DNA of 64,000 bases from the IMG/VR virus record IMGVR_UViG_3300032167_000006; one strand, written 5' to 3'. Shown piece by piece: positions 85-24,093 of this stretch; position 1 is the first letter of the stretch, and each line of letters begins with the position of its first letter. The notes beneath the pieces are model-generated. The model worked only from the letters and a program-made list of their open reading frames with translations. It was not told the origin of the DNA and did not search any database. Origin of the DNA: a virus. Taxonomy: Duplodnaviria > Caudoviricetes. The position numbers were made by a program, and so were the translations under genes.

Positions 85-231
85 AATAAGGCTGTTCATC
101 TCACTCCATTTACTACTGCTGCTGGGTTCCGTCAAGGTATCCATATTTCGCAATTAGATTCCTCCGAGCATTACCTCGTGTACTTTATTTAACTCTAATC
201 ACTACCTTCTGTCTGGCTTCGTAGCACCTTA
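85..231 (-). ncRNA. Putative structured ncRNA, family copy 1
   Basis: 5' block TAAGGTGCTACGAAGC and 3' block GCAGTAGTAAATGGAGTGAGATGAACAGCCTTA shared with two other copies; ends pair; strand inferred from flanking tRNAs. Confidence 0.6.
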
Positions 232-299
232 CATTTAAGTCGTATTGCTACGACTCAAGTTTGATCTACGTAGGGGATCATAGATCATTTTAAATTTAT

Positions 300-414
300 T
301 AAGGCTGTTCATCAAACTCCATTTACTACAGCACACAGCTGAAAAGTAGTATTACTTATTTTCCACGTTTGAAACGGTCCTTGCCTCATACTATCAGCCA
401 CGTAGCACCTTATT
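300..414 (-). ncRNA. Putative structured ncRNA, family copy 2
   Basis: Same conserved end blocks, different core (GCTGA/TCAGC stem). Confidence 0.6.
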
Positions 415-422
415 AAATTTAT

Positions 423-498
423 TGGCTCCCCAAGTTGGACTCGAACCAACGACTCTGCGGTTAACAGCCGCATGCTCTACCGACTGAGCTATTGAGGA
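423..498 (-). tRNA. tRNA-Asn(GTT)
   Basis: TCCTCAATAGCTCAGTCGGTAGAGCATGCGGCT-GTT-AACCGCAGAGTCGTTGGTTCGAGTCCAACTTGGGGAGCCA. Confidence 0.96.
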
Positions 499-583
499 AT
501 GTTTAGGGATAAGTGATAGGAGGTTCACGCATGAACCTCCTAGATTATGGGCCCCACGAGCATTCATAATACGATCACTTAAG

Positions 584-659
584 TGGCTCCCCCTGTTGGA
601 CTCGAACCAACGACTCTGCGGTTAACAGCCGCATGCTCTACCGACTGAGCTAAGGAGGA
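584..659 (-). tRNA. tRNA-Asn(GTT), second copy
   Basis: Same body as 423-498, with compensatory acceptor-stem changes; encoded CCA. Confidence 0.96.
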
Positions 660-664
660 ATGTT

Positions 665-808
665 TATTTGGTCGGTGCGCACCTACTACCTGAAGCATCT
701 GCAACCTTTTAAGCTATTATCGAGGATTTTATAAAACATAATCGCGATAGCAAACATATTATGCAACCGCAATTATATGAGCTCAACCCCGTCAGGTTTC
801 AACCAAAT
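665..808 (-). ncRNA. Putative ~145-nt hairpin ncRNA
   Basis: ATTTGGTTG/CGACCAAAT terminal stem and ACCTGA/TCAGGT inner stem; GC-richer than the genome; between tRNAs. Confidence 0.4.
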
Positions 809-837
809 GTAGGCTTTATCCACTAAAAGAAAAAGAA

Positions 838-1061
838 GCATTCTTTAGATTTGCGTTAGCCGCTGTATACGGTAAAACTCTCTGTGTGGCGAACGACATG
901 AGTTGCAAAGCACTTGATCCTACAGCAGTCTCCCACCTTAAAGAGCTAAGCTGCAACGATGTAATAACAAGTGATGTTAAATACAAAAATCCAATAACTT
1001 TTGTTAATACATCCAAAATTATTTTAACAAGCAACCATGCGGTTCTACCTTCTAAGAATGC
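838..1061 (-). ncRNA. Putative ~225-nt structured ncRNA
   Basis: GCATTCTTAGA/TCTAAAGAATGC closing stem; internal TTGTTAA/TTAACAA and GTTGCA/TGCAAC stems. Confidence 0.35.
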
Positions 1062-1072
1062 AAAAGGAGAAA

Positions 1073-1159
1073 TGGTGCCGGTGACCAGACTCGAACTGGT
1101 ACGGTATTGCTACCACAGGATTTTAAGTCCTGGGTGTCTGCCAATTCCACCACACCGGC
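1073..1159 (-). tRNA. tRNA-Leu(TAA)
   Basis: GCCGGTGTGGTGGAATTGGCAGACACCCAGGACT-TAA-AATCCTG, long variable arm, GTTCGAGTC, ends ACCA. Confidence 0.96.
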
Positions 1160-1170
1160 ATTTGTAAAAT

Positions 1171-1280
1171 GTATATAATAAGGCCGTTCATTTCACTCCA
1201 TTTACTACTGCTCCTGTAATCCTTAGAATAGTCTTTGAGCTCCAAGACGTCTATAGGCTTCGTAGCACCTTATTATATAC
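1171..1280 (-). ncRNA. Putative structured ncRNA, family copy 3
   Basis: Perfect 13-bp terminal inverted repeat GTATATAATAAGG/CCTTATTATATAC plus the conserved blocks. Confidence 0.6.
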
Positions 1281-2642: not shown

Positions 2643-4446
2643 ATCTTTCGTAATACATTAAACCATCACCAAAGATATCAAATCCGTCGATAAATTCTTC
2701 TTGTGAATAAGTAAATAACGAATAATCAACTAATTTCTTAGCGACTTGTATACACTCATTGAGCACCTCATTATTTTTCTGTTCATCTTTAATTGATCCT
2801 ACAATTCTACACATTTCTTTTTTAGCAATCATCTTATTATAAGTATCAATTACTTTAGCAAGATCCGATTCCCATGTTGATGGTTCAGTATATTCTGAGA
2901 AATGATTATCATATAATGAAACAAGTGGACAAACTGTACCACTGATTCCAGGATCAGAGTTAGAAGAACTATCTATATCAACTCTGCCAAGATGAGATGG
3001 ATGAATAGATCTATATGCATTTGATATTGCATTAGCTTTTTCACCAATACCAGATACACCTTTATATGTATATTTAAGTGCAGTAATAGCATCGAGATCA
3101 TTAACACAATCTTTATAGTTAACTAACTGACATTTGCTTATAGAATTAATCAGATACATAGGAGATATTTGTAAAGCTTTCTTAATCGTAGTAAGATCTG
3201 CTTTATCACCTTTATCAGAAATTCTATAAATACCAGTTGCTAACTTGGAAGCATAATAAGAAGCTATATATTCAGCCCATCTTATTTTCTTTGTAGATAT
3301 GTCAAGATTATCTTTCTGACGTAATGAGTTAAACTCATACATCATCCAACGAAGCACTCTATACACATCTGACTTATCTTCCATATCAAGTTTAAGATCA
3401 TTCATTGTTATATCATCATAAATAAAATCAAGTGAATTTAAGATATTATAACCTTTTTCATGTATACTATCAAAATCTTTTGTAGTGAATTCCATACCAA
3501 GAGATTTAACCCATTCACTATTAGTAAATACATCTGAGAAAGATATATTCTTTGTTACATTATAAACTGTATATAATGTATATACAAATGACTGAACCAC
3601 TTGAACAGAATCATACATTAATTTATTTACGACAATATATGCATCTTTTACAGGGAAAATATAATTATCATCAGAATTGAATTCTTTAAATGATTTGGTA
3701 AAATAAACACCTTTTATACCAAGAAATTTCATAGATTCATAAAATCCCATTTTTGCTAATATATATTTCATTAGCAATAAAGATTTCTTAAACATATTTC
3801 CTACAAAATATGTACATGGAATTGCTCGTCCATTTAAATCTTTAAGAGTATTCATATATCTATAAACTCTTATAGGCATAAAGATAGTTTTAAAAGTTAT
3901 AGATTGTTTCTTAGCATTCTTTGCAGCACTATTATTATAAGTACTAGCATCTACAATCTGATACATTGCAGAATACATATTTCCATTTAGTCTAAAATAG
4001 AAACCATCAACAATCCTAGGTATAGCAATATATACTGTGATATTATCGCTTACTAAACCATTCTTCTTTTCAAAAATTTGTATAAAATAATCAACTTTTA
4101 TAATTTTAAGGTCTGAATCTTTTAAATTAATAAAATTATATTGATTATCTTTTGCTTTATAAACACTTTTTCCATCTTCAGATTTTTTACCTTTGCTAAG
4201 AATATTATCTTCATATTCCCAAAGGATATGATTTACATCATCATAGTCATCAATAACCTGAAAATTAGTAATTTTAATTGTAAAGACAGAATCACGTTCG
4301 CATGAATATACTACAGCTTTAATAGCTTCAATAAGATCATCATCTGATCTTTGAAATAATTCTTTAGTGAATTTAGGTCTATGAGTATTATTAAAATTAT
4401 AAATAAATTCTCTTTGATTCATAATTAGCACCCCATAATATTGCAA
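2635..4446 (-). CDS. Phage multisubunit RNAP beta, N-terminal part (probably non-virion RNAP)
   Basis: YRSIHPSHLGRVD..SS.SDPG matches beta motif RDVHPTHYGR; YFRLNG; likely start 4422. Confidence 0.85.
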   Translation of the reverse strand: MQYYGVLIMNQREFIYNFNNTHRPKFTKELFQRSDDDLIEAIKAVVYSCERDSVFTIKITNFQVIDDYDDVNHILWEYEDNILSKGKKSEDGKSVYKAKDNQYNFINLKDSDLKIIKVDYFIQIFEKKNGLVSDNITVYIAIPRIVDGFYFRLNGNMYSAMYQIVDASTYNNSAAKNAKKQSITFKTIFMPIRVYRYMNTLKDLNGRAIPCTYFVGNMFKKSLLLMKYILAKMGFYESMKFLGIKGVYFTKSFKEFNSDDNYIFPVKDAYIVVNKLMYDSVQVVQSFVYTLYTVYNVTKNISFSDVFTNSEWVKSLGMEFTTKDFDSIHEKGYNILNSLDFIYDDITMNDLKLDMEDKSDVYRVLRWMMYEFNSLRQKDNLDISTKKIRWAEYIASYYASKLATGIYRISDKGDKADLTTIKKALQISPMYLINSISKCQLVNYKDCVNDLDAITALKYTYKGVSGIGEKANAISNAYRSIHPSHLGRVDIDSSSNSDPGISGTVCPLVSLYDNHFSEYTEPSTWESDLAKVIDTYNKMIAKKEMCRIVGSIKDEQKNNEVLNECIQVAKKLVDYSLFTYSQEEFIDGFDIFGDGLMYYERFD

Positions 4447-6283: not shown

Positions 6284-8575
6284 CTATTGTAAAACTATAT
6301 TATTTGCTTCTAAGAATCCAGATTTATTAAATACCGGAATTCCATACTTTTTAGCTTTCTGCACTTTTGATGAAATAGAATTGATATCATCTGCTATAAG
6401 TGCAAATGTATCTTTAGTTACAGAATATTTATCACTTGCATCAAATCCATTATTAATTAAAAGCTGGATGAATGCAGAATCTCTAAATCCTGTAATTGCT
6501 ATCCTTGGACCAGTAGATAATCCTTTAGAATTAATAATATGGAAATTATCTATACAATATTGTACATCTTTATCATATAATAAAAATCCTTCCACAATAG
6601 CATCCACTGTCTTTGGACCAATGCCATTTATATTAATTAATTTTTCATGATCAGTAAAGATTTGATGCATTAATTCTTGTAATGTGTAATTTCTAAAAAT
6701 TAATTTCCAAGTCTCATCTGCCATTCCATCAAAGCTGAAAGCTGACATAAGCTTATAATCCATTATTTCAGAATTTTTAAGTTGCTCTATATAAGATAGT
6801 AGATTTGAACTATTTATAGGTCCTAAAAATTGTACTTGCTCATAAGTTAAATTCATTAATTTACTAAATGAAGTTAATTTAAGAGCTCTAACTGTTTCTT
6901 CTGAGAAATCTTTAAAACCAAATCTATCAATCATATCAACCATTCTCATTATAGAACGTTCATAACATTTTACATTTGGGCATTTAGCAGATTTTCCAGA
7001 ATCAGATATAATTAATTCAGTACCACAACATGGACAATGAGTGATAAATTCAACAGGTTTTTCTTTTTGATCTCTATTATGCTGTGTGTCAGGTTTCGTA
7101 ATATAGGTGATTACGTCATTTACATAATCAATATCTATCTCGTCACCAACAGCAAGATTCAATTCTTTAAATCTTTTATATGAATGAATAGTCTGTTTGG
7201 TGTGAATACCTCCTATGAATTCACAGGCTTTAAAATGACACATCGGTATAATATCACCAGATTTACCAATAGAATATGAATATCCTAAGAATAAAGTTCT
7301 GGCGTTGCGAGGATTAAATTTAATTGCCATTGAATATTTATTAACTGAATTAATTCTACCAAGCCTATTAATTTTATCTTTATCGATAAATGATACTACA
7401 ACTCCATCTATCATATAAGGTAAAATCTTTCTAATAGTCTCTGCAGATTCTACAAACTGTTTGACCTGAAATAATATAGATTGATAGTCTCCTTTAAGAA
7501 TACAAAATCTATTATATTCTCCAGAATGATAATATTTATTTAAGAAATTAAGTTCGGGAATTCTATCCATCTCCAGAGATGTAGCTATTGGTATTAATGT
7601 AATATAATCTATGTAATTGTAAGCATCACTTGCACCACATAAACCAATTATTGCATTTCTTCCATTCTTATAACTCTTACCTCTGGCTTCTGATAAACGC
7701 TGAAGGTTATAATAAGTTATAACAGCCTCAAATTTCATGCCAAATGTAATATCTGTTGGTACATCTTTAGCATTATGAAATTTATATCCGCCAAATATTG
7801 GAGTTAAATCGGTTGCAATATTATCTCCAGTATCTCCACGAGATAGTGCGCTTATAATTGTATCTCCACATACTTCAGCCTCAACTGAAATACCATCATA
7901 TTTTAATTCAGCTACCATTTCAAATTCTTCATTTGGATATATTATTCCTTGATCCAAACACTTATGAATAAAATCCCTTTCAAATATCTGAACTGATGGT
8001 TTATCATATACGTTAGCTATAACAGCATCATTGTTTAAAACAAATTTACATTTATCTAACGTACCAACCAATTCTGGATATTTATGTTCTGTATTAATAA
8101 GTCTTTTAGTAATAGGTTCTCTAACTAAAAAGCACATATTAACAGGTCTCATCTCACGCAATGGAGTATGCTGTTTCCAAATATCTCTAGTAAATAATTT
8201 ATCATCCATATTATCTACAGCTACACACATTACTTTTTCAGTTTCAACTTCATTTTGAGGCTGCTCCTTGAATATTATAGGAGCAGCACCAACTTGATAG
8301 TTAGGATCATAGTTATAATACTTTACAGCCAGCTGATCATATATACCATCATCTAATGGAAGTAAAGTATTGCTTGTATTATTGTATGCAATATTACTAA
8401 TTCTTAATATTAAATTAGCCATATTAATCATACCTTCATTCCAATCTTGGCAATTAATTAAATTAACTGCCATGTTGCTAAGTTCTGCACAAGTTTTAGT
8501 ATCATTCAGTAGTTCTGGATTTCCTTTTTCCAACTCCGACAACATCTTTTCTAACTTGACCATATTCCTCACCAA
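6284..8575 (-). CDS. ligA: NAD-dependent DNA ligase
   Basis: ELKYDG adenylation motif, LSRGD, DGVV, C4 Zn finger, HhH, BRCT; likely start 8563. Confidence 0.95.
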   Translation of the reverse strand: MVRNMVKLEKMLSELEKGNPELLNDTKTCAELSNMAVNLINCQDWNEGMINMANLILRISNIAYNNTSNTLLPLDDGIYDQLAVKYYNYDPNYQVGAAPIIFKEQPQNEVETEKVMCVAVDNMDDKLFTRDIWKQHTPLREMRPVNMCFLVREPITKRLINTEHKYPELVGTLDKCKFVLNNDAVIANVYDKPSVQIFERDFIHKCLDQGIIYPNEEFEMVAELKYDGISVEAEVCGDTIISALSRGDTGDNIATDLTPIFGGYKFHNAKDVPTDITFGMKFEAVITYYNLQRLSEARGKSYKNGRNAIIGLCGASDAYNYIDYITLIPIATSLEMDRIPELNFLNKYYHSGEYNRFCILKGDYQSILFQVKQFVESAETIRKILPYMIDGVVVSFIDKDKINRLGRINSVNKYSMAIKFNPRNARTLFLGYSYSIGKSGDIIPMCHFKACEFIGGIHTKQTIHSYKRFKELNLAVGDEIDIDYVNDVITYITKPDTQHNRDQKEKPVEFITHCPCCGTELIISDSGKSAKCPNVKCYERSIMRMVDMIDRFGFKDFSEETVRALKLTSFSKLMNLTYEQVQFLGPINSSNLLSYIEQLKNSEIMDYKLMSAFSFDGMADETWKLIFRNYTLQELMHQIFTDHEKLININGIGPKTVDAIVEGFLLYDKDVQYCIDNFHIINSKGLSTGPRIAITGFRDSAFIQLLINNGFDASDKYSVTKDTFALIADDINSISSKVQKAKKYGIPVFNKSGFLEANNIVLQ

Positions 8576-10760
8576 CTTTCTTACACATTACTTTACCAGC
8601 CATCATTTTTCCATTACCACGTTTATAATCATCGAGAGCCGCATTGTATTGCATTTGTAATTCATCAAACCTACCTAAAACATCACGTATATTAGTCTTA
8701 GGTTTATGAAGTCTAGGTGGTACAATTTTAGCCATGACATTAAGAACCATATCTTTTCTTTGTTTTGGTATCCTTTTAAATGTCAATCTAAGACCCATAG
8801 TTTCCATCAATGCATTAATTATTTCAGCATTTCTATTTTTAGAATTCTGATCTAATTTAATATCAATATTATATGGATCACCAACTAAAAGTTGCTCAAC
8901 AAGTCTTCTACCTTGAGGTGATGACGAATAAAGCATAAGATTCATTACAACATATTGAACTCCCATATGAAGCAAGTCACCAGATTCCATAAAACCAAAC
9001 ATGATAGGTGTTTTGGTATACTTAGCTTCATACATCTTGTTTGCTTTAGAACGTGTATTAAGATTCTTTAAGTTTGTTGCAGAAAGTGAAGTAACTGAGA
9101 ATTTTTCTTCTGCGTACTGTTTTAATCTATAATGATAGATTTTACTTACAACCATAGGTCTTAATGCTTTAACCATTCTAATATTACCATTAGAATCTTC
9201 CATAGGCATCATAATTTTATATGGTTTTATAAACTCAAATTCATCATATATTTTTTCTATAGTATCTATATTAATAGATGTAGTAAATGGTTGAGTTGTT
9301 AAAATAATAGCATCATCTTCTAAAATACTATTAATTATATTTCTACATTCAAATTCATCTTCTGGATCTATATAATAAAGCATTTCATCAGCCTGCTCTT
9401 TATCAACCATCGAGATAAATTTATATAACATTTTAACTTGTTCACCATATGTCATATGTCCTATCCTAAAATAGTCTAAAAGACGCATTCCGATAAATGA
9501 TAAAGATTGCTCATGAAGCTGTCCGATATTTTCACGGTTGATACAAGTAGACTGATTTTTAATAACCTCTACTCTTTTACCATTTTCAAGCATAGGCATT
9601 AACTCATCATCAAGTATCTGAGATACAACACCTTTACCACCGTATCTATCACACATTTTATCGCCAGGTTCCATAGGAAGTTTCTGAATAACTGTAACTT
9701 CCATAATAACATGGTTAAATACTTTTTCTTTATAGAATTGCTTACCAGAAATAATATCTCTACATCTACCATAAAATTTCTTTAAGTTATATGATAAATT
9801 AGAAGTCATAGCTAATGGTCCAACAATGTCATTAACTTCTTTACAAAATCTAAGACTTTGATTATAATAATAAAATAACTGTGCATTATAATGTGAATCT
9901 CCAAGAGCTTCAGGATTATTACAATATATATTTATATCTGCTACAGTGCCTTCCATAAGGATATTTCTATCCGAAAGCATTATATCTCTAAGATTTTGCT
10001 GACTTAAAGAATACAGTATATTTTCATTTTCCATACGACGTATAGAACAAAATATACCATTTTTAACTTCTTCTCCGATATCAGGAAATGTTTTATATAC
10101 ATTTTCATCTCCATAAAGATTAAGAAGAATATCGTTATCATTTATTGTTATAGGCGTATTTTTAACCAAAGGTATTGCTAATTTTTCAGCACATGATTTT
10201 GATAATATTATAGAGTCTTCCATATTTTGAGCACATGATACATACAACGTGGTTAAATTAATACCATTCATTTTATTACCATACTCATCAAAACCAATAG
10301 ATGTTTTAATAGGTGCACCTTTATTTATCTTATCGCCTACTCTTAAATCATCTAATTTATTATTATTCCATAAGAATCCATATGATTCAGTATTGTAATT
10401 ATATGCAACTCTTTCAATAACATCATACACACCATTTATATTATCATATATTAATAAATAATAATGATGATCTTTACCTTCAATTGTTTGAAACTTATGC
10501 ACAACGGTATAGTCTGATGGAGATGCTATATATGAAGTTGAATTTCTGCCGAATTCATTTTCATATCCAGTTTGAATAATAGGCACTTCTCCATTATAAA
10601 GCACTGTAAGATGCTCAGTATGTACTGAAGTCATTAGTGCTCTAGAACCAGAGTTGGCAGGTCTAAATGGTTGCATTGAAGTTCGTCCAAGCATATAATT
10701 ATAATTAGGTAAATAATTAGTACTTTCTATGATTTGTTCATTAATATTAATATTTGCCAT
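8502..10760 (-). CDS. Phage multisubunit RNAP beta, C-terminal part (probably non-virion RNAP)
   Basis: SRALM, NMEDSI, GDKMCDRYGGKGVVS, RENIGQ, YRLKQ, FGFME. Confidence 0.92.
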   Translation of the reverse strand: MANININEQIIESTNYLPNYNYMLGRTSMQPFRPANSGSRALMTSVHTEHLTVLYNGEVPIIQTGYENEFGRNSTSYIASPSDYTVVHKFQTIEGKDHHYYLLIYDNINGVYDVIERVAYNYNTESYGFLWNNNKLDDLRVGDKINKGAPIKTSIGFDEYGNKMNGINLTTLYVSCAQNMEDSIILSKSCAEKLAIPLVKNTPITINDNDILLNLYGDENVYKTFPDIGEEVKNGIFCSIRRMENENILYSLSQQNLRDIMLSDRNILMEGTVADINIYCNNPEALGDSHYNAQLFYYYNQSLRFCKEVNDIVGPLAMTSNLSYNLKKFYGRCRDIISGKQFYKEKVFNHVIMEVTVIQKLPMEPGDKMCDRYGGKGVVSQILDDELMPMLENGKRVEVIKNQSTCINRENIGQLHEQSLSFIGMRLLDYFRIGHMTYGEQVKMLYKFISMVDKEQADEMLYYIDPEDEFECRNIINSILEDDAIILTTQPFTTSINIDTIEKIYDEFEFIKPYKIMMPMEDSNGNIRMVKALRPMVVSKIYHYRLKQYAEEKFSVTSLSATNLKNLNTRSKANKMYEAKYTKTPIMFGFMESGDLLHMGVQYVVMNLMLYSSSPQGRRLVEQLLVGDPYNIDIKLDQNSKNRNAEIINALMETMGLRLTFKRIPKQRKDMVLNVMAKIVPPRLHKPKTNIRDVLGRFDELQMQYNAALDDYKRGNGKMMAGKVMCKKVGEEYGQVRKDVVGVGKRKSRTTE

Positions 10761-21729: not shown

Positions 21730-24093
21730 TTATTTTCTAATAAGTTCTGCTTTAATTACTCCATCTTTACAGAGTTTAACACCCTGGCTTACACTTGAAC
21801 CATAAGGAATACTATCAGTATCTATTTCTAATACTTCATCTGCTCTTACTACACGAATAGTACTATTACCTGCACAAGAGAATATATTTAAAATATAATC
21901 ACCCTTATTAAGTTTGATAACTTTACTACCTGCTTTGTTACGAGCACTTCTTTCAAATGCAGCCTGAGATATTTTATTAAATCTACCTTTAGCTGTAACT
22001 ACAACTACATCTTTTGTATCCGATGTAACAACTGAAATACCATCAATTGTTTCTGTAGTTTTCATAGCTTGATTACCAAGTGTAGATCTCTTTAAATAAG
22101 GAATCTGTTCAATTGGCATTCTTAAAGCTTTAGATTTTGTATATACAATAACATCAGATTTTTGATTTGCTATAAGAATATCACAAACCATATCATTAGC
22201 ATTAAGCTTAGAATAAATAATACCAGACGGTGTAGCATTAAGCACATCATCTATATCCATTCTCTTGATTAAACCATTCTTAGTTACTGTAACTACAAAA
22301 TACTTAGAACCTTTATTCTGTAAGTGTTCAAGTATCGGTAAATACATTACAGAAATGATATTACTTGTAAGCTTCTTAAGGATAAGACGAATATCCAATC
22401 CAGGACTGTTCTTATCTGTAAAAGCAATCTTATGTACAGGTAATCTAAATACTTTACCCATCTGATCGAATAATAAAATATCTTTACTATTATCAGCAAT
22501 AATAATACATTTAGCATTATCGCCTTTAACAGTTTTAATAGGATCATTTATTTGAAGTTTCTTAATATAATTCTGTTCTGTTACAACTAATTTAAATTCA
22601 CCTTCGGGTATATTAGATGCTTCAGATTCAGAAATAAGAATGCTCTGTCTGGGTTTACCATATTTAGCTTTAATTTCAAGAAGCTCTTGTTCAATTTCTT
22701 GATCAATAAGTTTTTCATTTGTAATTATATTTATATAATTATTTACATCTGCAAATAATCTAGCTTGTTCTTCTTTATACTTATTAAGATGACCTTTAGA
22801 AAGTCTACCAATTTCAGTATGAAGAACGAATTTGGCCTGAAGGTCTGTAATCTTAAGTTTCTTCATAAGCCAATCTACAAGATATCCTTCATCCATAGAT
22901 GCCTGATTACGAATCATACGTATAATATTTTCTACGTCACCAGATTCAAGAATCTTAATATATGTATCAAGCTGATGTAATCTTGTTTCCGCTTTCTGTA
23001 ATCTAAAATTATATAAACGGAATTTAACAGATCTACGAAACTCTAAGAAATATGCAATATATGCTTTATAACTAATACGACTTACATCTGTCTCATTAAT
23101 TACCTGCATATTAATTCTCTTAGTATCCTGAAGAGGAGTATTCTTATAAAGAACCTGTTTTACATAATTAGGATCTGAACCTCTCTTAAGGATAATATGA
23201 ATATCAAGTTGATTTTCTGTAGAATGATCTTGTATGTCTGCAATCTGAACAAGTTTCTTATCTTTAATAAGATTCTCAATCTTTTCAGCTATGCTATCAT
23301 AGAAGATCAAATCAGGTGTAGATAAAATATGTAATGTATCTATTCCTGTTTTTGGATTATGCTCTATATTAATTATACCACGTTCAATATAATAACCATA
23401 ACCAGTATTACTTATTTTCTTCCAGTCTGTATCAATAACTTCACATTTTTGACATGGGTCAGGAATAAGTATTACCTTAGCTTTAGGATCATGTAATACT
23501 GCAATAGTTGCATCTATAACATCATTAAGACTATGCTTAGGACTCTCTATACGGCTACCAATTGCAATACCAAAACATCCATTAACTAAAAGAAGCGGAA
23601 CCTTTACAGGTAAGCACTCTGGTTCTTTAGTATGATTATCAAATGTATTCTGCCAGTCAACTACATCTCTTACTTCTTGTAAATCTCCTATAACACAATC
23701 CATAGAAAATTTAGATAAATAAGCTTCAGTATAACGCATAGCTGCCTGAGGACCACCCTGAAGTGAACCTGAGTTTGAGTCATAATTAATAAGAGGCACT
23801 TTTATTTCGAACCAGTTTGTTAATGCTTTCATACTTCCGTATACAGCATCCTGTGAATGCGGATGGTATTTAGCTATAACAAGACCTACGGTATTTGCTG
23901 ATTTACGTTTTGTATTTACCGAAATGCATCCAACGTCATTCCACATAGCATACAAGGTTCTTCTTTGACCTGGTTTAAGACCATCTCTAATATCTGGCGT
24001 ATATCTATCATATAAAATATATAATGAATATCTAGCCATGTTTTCCATATAAGCTTTACGCGAATCTATCTGAATAATATTATCATTAGCCAT
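21730..24093 (-). CDS. gyrA: Type IIA topoisomerase subunit A (GyrA/ParC family)
   Basis: RDGLKPGQRR, KYHPH, AAMRYTE catalytic Tyr, beta-pinwheel repeats; gyrase vs topo IV unresolved. Confidence 0.93.
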   Translation of the reverse strand: MANDNIIQIDSRKAYMENMARYSLYILYDRYTPDIRDGLKPGQRRTLYAMWNDVGCISVNTKRKSANTVGLVIAKYHPHSQDAVYGSMKALTNWFEIKVPLINYDSNSGSLQGGPQAAMRYTEAYLSKFSMDCVIGDLQEVRDVVDWQNTFDNHTKEPECLPVKVPLLLVNGCFGIAIGSRIESPKHSLNDVIDATIAVLHDPKAKVILIPDPCQKCEVIDTDWKKISNTGYGYYIERGIINIEHNPKTGIDTLHILSTPDLIFYDSIAEKIENLIKDKKLVQIADIQDHSTENQLDIHIILKRGSDPNYVKQVLYKNTPLQDTKRINMQVINETDVSRISYKAYIAYFLEFRRSVKFRLYNFRLQKAETRLHQLDTYIKILESGDVENIIRMIRNQASMDEGYLVDWLMKKLKITDLQAKFVLHTEIGRLSKGHLNKYKEEQARLFADVNNYINIITNEKLIDQEIEQELLEIKAKYGKPRQSILISESEASNIPEGEFKLVVTEQNYIKKLQINDPIKTVKGDNAKCIIIADNSKDILLFDQMGKVFRLPVHKIAFTDKNSPGLDIRLILKKLTSNIISVMYLPILEHLQNKGSKYFVVTVTKNGLIKRMDIDDVLNATPSGIIYSKLNANDMVCDILIANQKSDVIVYTKSKALRMPIEQIPYLKRSTLGNQAMKTTETIDGISVVTSDTKDVVVVTAKGRFNKISQAAFERSARNKAGSKVIKLNKGDYILNIFSCAGNSTIRVVRADEVLEIDTDSIPYGSSVSQGVKLCKDGVIKAELIRK

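Follow-up and report, generated by a model that had tools for sequence, protein, structure and literature searches.

A widespread family of small structured RNAs with a near-invariant bulge, encoded within or next to tRNA arrays in large phages of gut and rumen

The tRNA islands of phages hold several abundant orphan RNAs, such as RNAs C and D of T4, GOLLD, ROOL and skipping-rope, which still lack an assigned function although the earliest were sequenced decades ago. The species 1 and 2 RNAs of T4 (rnaC and rnaD), for instance, are about 120–140 nt long and are encoded within the tRNA gene cluster of the phage, a few nt from tRNAs and on the same strand as these (NC_000866 annotation), while ROOL, GOLLD and skipping-rope (RF03087, RF01998 and RF02924, respectively) are structured phage or prophage RNAs that are often found by tRNA islands (PMC5737381; PMC12286853). 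Here we describe a compact and very widespread addition to this set, starting from three elements at the beginning of a 64,000-nt stretch of viral DNA (hereafter, the window), which is the reverse strand of positions 112618–176617 in the 258,973-bp IMG/VR record IMGVR_UViG_3300032167_000006, estimated to be 96% complete. The three are paralogues within a large family of genes for small structured phage RNAs, a family widespread in large gut and rumen phages and of which we found no description. The conservation pattern suggests that the functional part of these RNAs is a near-invariant bulge and not their variable middle, and we put at roughly 0.55 the probability that they are stable trans-acting RNAs, which would be released from tRNA-operon transcripts and would dock a conserved partner through a conserved junction and this bulge.

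Family members are about 90–170 nt long and share one fold. A closing stem of 5–13 bp and free sequence (P1) ends in two G-C pairs; next come a junction of tandem U.G / G.U pairs and a helix of 4–5 bp (P2). Between P1 and P2, the 3' strand alone carries a nearly invariant, purine-rich bulge of 19–20 nt, (U)UAAAUGGAGU-K-N-R-A-N-GAACAG, which is flanked by the two wobble pairs, the U.G closing P1 and the G.U opening P2. Beyond P2 lies a short, purine-rich internal loop, with GAAG opposite A-N-AG-N-AGCW in the main class or AAAUG opposite AAGAAU in another, and finally a distal domain (P3 and further) whose sequence and length are both free to vary.

In the window, the three copies are all encoded on the minus strand within the main tRNA cluster of the phage. 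Copy 3 (1171–1280) measures 110 nt including a 13-bp P1, is the first unit of the tRNA operon and ends 11 nt before tRNA-Leu; copy 2 (300–412, 113 nt) begins about 10 nt past the second tRNA-Asn; and copy 1 (86–232, 147 nt) ends 11 nt before tRNA-Asp. The covariance model of the family scores them at 89.5 bits (E 5e-21), 75.3 bits (E 2e-17) and 83.3 bits (E 2e-19), respectively. The 5' handle of copy 3 (1261–1272) comprises the end of P1 (..AAGG), the U of the U.G pair, the G of the G.U pair and the 5' strand of P2 (GCUAC) plus a G, whereas its 3' handle (1179–1208) comprises the 3' strand of P2 (GUAGU), a 19-nt bulge (AAAUGGAGUGAAAUGAACG), the G partner of the U.G pair and the first letters of the 3' strand of P1. 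The 5' handles of copies 2 and 1 (401–412 and 220–231) and their 3' handles (300–329 and 87–116) match the same block patterns. The 30-nt 3' block GTAGTAAATGGAGTNNNATGAACNGCCTTA occurs three times in the window with no mismatch, versus no occurrence in 100 dinucleotide shuffles, and the 12-nt 5' block TAAGGTGCTACG occurs three times versus a shuffle mean of 0.13. A previous inspection of the letters alone (the sequence-only reading) had proposed these three minus-strand copies with shared handles and unrelated middles, and its coordinates agree with ours to within 1–2 nt. The P1 arms are identical among the three copies, and the variable cores of copy 1 (117–219, 103 nt), copy 2 (330–400, 71 nt) and copy 3 (1209–1260, 52 nt) fail to align. 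In copy 3, a semi-conserved GAAGCC start and a ACAGGAGCA end of the core frame the distal helix P3, and the inner handle of copy 2 is atypical in having GUGGC in place of GAAGC. Both the pattern search and the covariance model find exactly three copies in the whole 259-kb genome.

The two helices are borne out by comparison of homologues. P1 covaries at each variable position (pair 8-232, for instance, is UA in 24 sequences, AU in 18, GU in 2, UG in 2, CG in 1 and unpaired in 1), its covariation score is reached by none of 500 column shuffles, and the pairing is lost when one partner is slid by 1–3 columns. P1 and P2 also covary in a second set of sequences ascertained by the 3' bulge alone, which is unbiased for the 5' half and for P2; here the core of P2 is 98.5% paired, one of its pairs being UA in 23 sequences, CG in 19, AU in 2 and UG in 2. 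Across 117 unique sequences, P2 reads UA 68, CG 32, UG 6 and AU 3 at position 15, AU 94, CG 8 and GC 4 at position 16, and CG 94, AU 9 and UA 3 at position 17; the variants found include GCUAC/GUAGU, GCCAC/GUGGU, GCCGC/GCGGU, GCAAC/GUUGU, GCUCC/GGAGU, GCCC/GGGU and GCUC/GAGU. Unguided RNAalifold likewise recovers P1, the U.G pair and P2. Homologues and strong covariation together thus establish that this is a true family of non-coding RNAs, whose handle is constant and whose core varies freely, and in which the pairing of TAAGGT with GCCTTA (P1) and of GCTAC with GTAGT (P2) is as the sequence-only reading had it.

The same data bear on the strand and on the nature of the element. The G.U pair at the junction is present in 115 of the 117 unique sequences, and the tRNA strand must be the functional one, since on the opposite strand both invariant wobbles, G.U and U.G, would turn into A-C mismatches. 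It is true that the ends of the element form inverted repeats and that some genomes carry several copies, as might be expected of a miniature transposon, a recombination site or a single-stranded-DNA hairpin. However, the outer arms show covariation rather than conservation, the invariant wobbles can function on one strand only, the orientation always follows that of the tRNAs and the promoters face into the element, so that a role at the level of DNA has a close to negligible probability.

The bulge is conserved across phages from 84 to 259 kb. At the positions that the search patterns had left free, the 119 unique sequences show G or U only at K, any base at N, and G or A at R. The GGAG-N4-ATG within the bulge had been likened to a ribosome binding site, a resemblance that fails because the ATG is not conserved, its U being free (U, G, A or C) across the 119 unique members. 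A coding reading of the bulge was also rejected: the AUGs open no conserved frame, and the second AUG meets a UGA in many members. Another resemblance concerns GAGUUUGAU and GAUGAAC in the bulge (e.g. window 300–322), which presumably also occur at the start of bacterial 16S rRNA, within its initial 35 nt (the 27F primer site, then GAUGAACGCU); it is probably a coincidence, since two of those letters are free in half of the family.

When the IMG/VR database was scanned with the 3' block, 42 stretches were found, and every one of them with enough upstream sequence has a 5' partner, GGUGCUACGAAGC, 60–150 nt upstream; the outermost arms of this set vary from locus to locus yet remain complementary. 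A looser pattern, TAAATGGAGTNNGANGAACAGC, is present in at least 115 IMG/VR stretches. A covariance model (R1) based on 48 non-redundant members detects the RNA in all 46 phage records reached, with one copy in 36 of them and 2–6 copies in the others; these motif-bearing records measure 84–233 kb and many have terminal repeats. Among 185,579 prokaryote genomes (one per species), only about 18 contigs contain both halves of the motif. Almost all of these bear phage-like tRNA arrays, the few others showing only ORFs of unknown family, and one of the contigs carries an RNA copy identical to that of a viral contig whose length it matches exactly. They are labelled as gut samples of sheep, goat, deer, rabbit, mouse and human, and include bins of Clostridia, Christensenellaceae, Acutalibacteraceae, Acholeplasmatales and Bacteroidales. 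In the 50,697 records of GenBank phages, a distant blastn search with three family members gave no match to the handle, and a 1.5-kb query from the window matched solely via its tRNAs. Literature searches by sequence strings returned only unrelated primers and searches by topic returned no description, the anonymous candidates of PMC10690425 standing outside this comparison. That source gives 10,006 anonymous candidate RNAs, and the family may be hidden among its 8,495 anonymous candidates from IMG/VR.

The genomic niche of the family is equally constant. Members lie nearly always inside a phage tRNA array or at its head, and in every tRNA-bearing locus the motif is within or beside the array and on the same strand as the tRNAs. 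In many loci, a strong TTGACA-17-TATAAT or TGnTATAAT (extended -10) promoter is found 10–35 nt upstream of P1. No alternative terminator was seen, and the element is followed by tRNAs or another structured RNA and not by coding genes. Stand-alone small-RNA genes exist, since the member at locus L085 has its own rho-independent terminator and that at L078 sits between two promoters and has no tRNA downstream of it. In the phage of the window, a promoter scan gave a single 10-of-12 match, in overlap with the P1 arm of copy 3, and as many sites as shuffles do. Near its tRNA cluster (window 6284–10760, minus strand), this phage encodes an ORF resembling the β subunit of RNA polymerase (752 aa, PF00562) and another resembling an NAD-dependent DNA ligase (763 aa), which mark it as a jumbo phage with its own transcription machinery; with a phage-encoded multisubunit RNA polymerase, its promoters may therefore not be σ70-like.

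From these features the following course of events may be proposed. The RNA would be made on the tRNA strand, either within the transcript of the tRNA operon or from its own strong σ70-type promoter at the head of the operon, and its ends would presumably be freed by the enzymes that trim the adjoining tRNAs, because the window copies are packed among tRNAs with spacers of only 8–11 nt. Once released, it would act in trans as a stable RNA whose junction and bulge form the docking site of a conserved partner. This partner would probably be a host factor in translation or tRNA metabolism, or else a tRNA itself, given that most carrier phages encode none adjacent to the RNA, and the variable domain would serve as a structural module at the periphery rather than as a guide.

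The main rival is a role in cis, in which the element would serve the tRNA operon as a module for processing, punctuation or stability, e.g. as a 5' structure shielding a polycistronic tRNA precursor against 5' exonuclease or as a guide for cleavage of the RNase P/Z type, without any function after its release. Such a module would account for an RNA embedded in same-strand tRNA arrays with tRNA-like spacers, often as the first element behind a strong promoter and in most genomes with one copy per array; moreover, P1 stacked on P2 would have about the length of the 12-bp acceptor/T-arm stack. However, a near-invariant bulge of 19–20 nt in phages of such different size exceeds the needs of a stabilising hairpin, the units at L085 and L078 stand alone, and two of the three window copies are located mid-array rather than at the head. 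On balance, we consider a purely cis-acting module unlikely, although more plausible than any of the other alternatives.

The variable core raises a different question, namely whether it carries the specific function. Five phages share about 95% identity over promoter plus handle while their cores and outer flanks have diverged, and phages with an almost identical promoter and handle have completely different cores of 53–86 nt. The rate of divergence of the core approximates that of the flanks, and within a closer subgroup a core hairpin is kept via compensatory changes while its loop sequence is not. Since core and flanks both diverge and the hairpin of the subgroup is compensated, selection acts on the promoter and the handle, the core needing mainly to fold. 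When the three window cores were compared with the genome of their own phage by blastn-short, no antisense match beyond chance was obtained. On the same strand, the core of copy 2 (CAAACGTGGAAAATAA) shares a 16-nt exact identity with window positions 23404–23419 (genome 153199–153214; E 0.003), which may be due to chance in AT-rich DNA; all other core matches in the phage genome have E values of 0.75 or more. Some core modules recur in different phages, and many cores (e.g. L125:5025–5134, L094:5526–5628 and L105:3419–3569) include a short hairpin whose heptaloop resembles a T-loop (UUUGAAU, UUUGAUU). Among hairpin loops of 6–9 nt the most frequent 4-mer is UUGA (23 of 117 cores), and UUUGAA is found in 21 cores versus 2.7 expected.

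A constant handle that binds an effector or target protein, together with a core acting as a guide, decoy or mimic that differs by copy and by phage, would extend the guide- or decoy-RNA layout inferred in the sequence-only reading. It finds some support in the unrelated cores between identical P1 arms in the window, in the exchange of whole cores behind near-identical promoters and handles, and in the recurrence of core modules and of UUGA-type loops reminiscent of T-loops; besides, phage tRNA arrays would be a plausible home for counter-defence RNAs. Nevertheless, most genomes (36 of 46) carry a single copy, the cores lack antisense matches in their own genome, no effector gene is conserved in the neighbourhood, the core diverges about as fast as non-functional flanks, and close relatives preserve the core hairpin and not the sequence of its loop. 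Guide RNAs of the CRISPR, tracr, omega or bridge type were rejected on similar grounds, having neither a complementary target in the phage genome nor a consistently adjacent effector. A handle with interchangeable cargo is thus improbable, and the trans-acting RNA proposed above, with its bulge as the docking site, is preferred to it.

Nor did the family match a known RNA class. Against Rfam 15, cmscan yielded only the flanking tRNAs and nothing over the three copies, whether run on the window with gathering thresholds or on positions 1–1500 with E up to 10, and five related loci as well as L045 7000–8600 showed no known family over family members. The families covered include tRNA, tmRNA, signal recognition particle (SRP) RNA, T-box, YrlA/Y RNA, skipping-rope, ROOL, GOLLD, RAGATH, self-cleaving ribozymes and riboswitches, so that the absence of a tRNA, tmRNA, SRP or T-box identity, noticed earlier from the letters, holds. 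As judged by eye, the registers of hammerhead, K-turn, C/D-box, SRP domain IV, 5S rRNA and tRNA frames misfit the conserved letters, and a riboswitch or cis-regulatory leader was rejected as there is neither a coding gene downstream nor an expression platform. Two side observations concern matches elsewhere in carrier arrays. In L018, a short tmRNA-family match (3148–3228, minus strand, 58 bits, above threshold) lies in a tRNA array that bears three family members, and in L045 a single tRNA array (3725–4348, 7096–7229, 7533–7615 and 8361–8449, all on the minus strand) holds ROOL (274 bits), skipping-rope (67 bits) and two family members.

A highly conserved asymmetric internal loop flanked by helices is typical of the anatomy of ribozymes and aptamers, and here such a loop, with an invariant G.U at its junction, indeed lies between covarying helices. 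The junction and the bulge could thus be conceived as the active site of a self-cleaving ribozyme that cuts the tRNA precursor, or as an aptamer. The lack of any Rfam 15 ribozyme or riboswitch match, of an expression platform and of a protein-coding gene downstream makes a catalytic or ligand-sensing RNA very unlikely indeed, and similar orphan motifs assayed by others showed no self-cleavage (PMC5737381).

As regards the neighbouring genes, all-against-all clustering of ORFs from about 60 loci placed the most frequent protein cluster in only 8 loci. Recurrent neighbours comprise isochorismatase, Thg1-like, NAPRTase, 5'-nucleotidase, HU and DUF2828/DUF7788 proteins, the others having no Pfam match; a Thg1-like tRNA-His guanylyltransferase (L053:6971–7807), a NAPRTase/NAMPT (L025:4514–6016) and an isochorismatase (L011:3398–3961) recur beside tRNA arrays. 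A protein of 500–560 aa with DUF2828 and DUF7788 (L015:579–2270, minus strand, and 13 other phage records) is encoded near the tRNA arrays of some carriers and has no sequence match in the PDB. DUF2828 (PF11443) is found in 14 of 49 motif-bearing records and in 9 of the 33 that are at least 90% complete, and is therefore not tightly correlated with the RNA.

These genes are of interest because of the Y RNAs (YrlA, RF02553; Y_RNA, RF00019), which with Ro60/Rsr offer the same general layout, i.e. an end-pairing stem, a conserved bulged handle and a variable module, and whose phage versions are also located near tRNAs; the likeness is one of layout, not of homology. By analogy, the present RNA could be the partner of a Ro60-type ring protein (the phage DUF2828/DUF7788 protein or host Rsr), with the bulged stem as the binding site and the core as the effector module. 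The covarying P1 and P2 with a conserved 3' bulge, as well as the DUF2828/DUF7788 genes within 5 kb of the RNA in 8 loci, would fit this possibility. In contrast, neither YrlA nor Y_RNA gives a match in Rfam even at E up to 10, the 96%-complete genome of the window phage contains neither TROVE (PF05731) nor DUF2828, most carriers lack DUF2828 and the family requires no tRNA-like module. We therefore regard a Y-RNA-like function as very unlikely.

Several points weigh against the stable trans-acting RNA that we favour. The invariance of the bulge is overstated, because letters other than the free positions were fixed by the search patterns and thus in part reflect ascertainment, and weaker matches of the covariance model carry changes in the bulge such as GGAAAGAGUUAAAC. 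Single-sequence folding of the three copies gives minimum-free-energy z-scores of -0.16, +0.71 and -0.39, no better than shuffles, and P3, although seen in many members with differing sequences, fares weakly in a simple test (mean best helix of 4.9 versus 4.3 in shuffles). Consequently, the earlier claim that the middles fold into stems stands on its comparative side and not on its thermodynamic one. The host partner is a guess, the comparison of genes having covered the neighbourhood of the RNA at each locus. Finally, a cis role in the processing or stability of the tRNA operon fits the same genomic data for most loci.

The tRNA cluster of the window phage also contains other elements, all on the minus strand. 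Read along the RNA strand, its first half consists of copy 3, tRNA-Leu(UAA) (1073–1159), a 412-nt gene-free stretch, tRNA-Asn(GUU) (584–659), an 85-nt structured spacer and a second tRNA-Asn(GUU) (423–498; the pair spans 423–659). The second half consists of copy 2, two hairpins, copy 1, tRNA-Asp(GUC) (1–74, cut by the window edge) and, beyond the window, about 225 nt followed by tRNA-Pro, a trailer and a terminator-like hairpin. The stretch between tRNA-Leu and the first tRNA-Asn (661–1072) is likely another structured RNA of the operon, since it is gene-free and relatively GC-rich and gives no match to Rfam at E up to 10 or to the family model; when its portion at 665–808 was considered as a diverged family member, the covariance model remained silent even at E up to 10. 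The spacer between the near-identical tRNA-Asn genes (499–583) holds a perfect 10-bp hairpin (GGAGGTTCAT/GTGAACCTCC). Copies 2 and 1 are separated by two hairpins (233–299), the second of which (AGTCGTA-GCAA-TACGACT), with a loop of GNRA type, is similar to the variable arm of tRNA-Leu nearby.

Clearly, a functional site made up of a 20-nt bulge and a wobble-pair junction, conserved in phages of 84 to 259 kb, is unusually easy to define, and the family is therefore tractable for pull-downs, structure determination and mutagenesis. It also deserves a covariance model in Rfam, as such stretches are now annotated as empty intergenic DNA. If the partner is a tRNA or a factor that handles tRNAs or ribosomes, large gut phages would manipulate host translation by means of RNA rather than protein.

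One guise that the partner might take is suggested by the T-loop, a module with a recognisable sequence pattern. The bulge pentad U-K-N-R-A fits this pattern in 119 of the 119 members examined, the fit being one of sequence pattern only, and a second pentad, UUAAA, lies beside the first in 47 of 120 members. Interdigitated T-loop modules dock the tRNA elbow in the L1 stalk of 23S rRNA, the S-domain of RNase P and stem I of the T-box (PMC4810234); in the present family, by contrast, the two pentads have no helix separating them. The pentad and the enrichment of UUGA loops in the cores are a lead, not a result, towards docking of the tRNA elbow. It is conceivable, if rather improbable, that the junction and the bulge form a T-loop platform (in some members together with the T-loop-like hairpin of the core), which would serve as a dock for the tRNA elbow or else present a mimic of it to an enzyme that handles tRNA. 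Were this true, the platform would be a fourth, phage-encoded class of RNA recognising the shape of tRNA, after the L1 stalk, after RNase P and after the T-box, and might be used to chaperone, sequester or shield tRNAs, e.g. against tRNA-targeting host defences during infection.

With the orphan RNAs of phage tRNA islands, finally, the family shares its setting but not its structure. Like rnaC and rnaD of T4, its members are small RNAs that share a phage gene cluster and a strand with tRNAs, from which a few nt separate them. T4 rnaC and rnaD share neither sequence nor handle with the family and, as judged by eye, lack the GGUG ... UAAAUGGAGU ... GAACAGCC frame; rnaC ends in a tRNA-like T-arm and acceptor, a T-arm that is absent in the present family; and the T4 RNAs are known from coliphages, whereas the present family was found only in uncultured phages of gut and rumen. 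ROOL, at about 600 nt, forms cages, and skipping-rope is an 80-nt multi-hairpin junction, so that architecture, size and loci all differ from those of the present family, and the models of ROOL, GOLLD and skipping-rope give no score on its RNA. Since ROOL, skipping-rope and family members all co-occur in the array of L045, the family shares its niche with ROOL and skipping-rope and yet is distinct from both.

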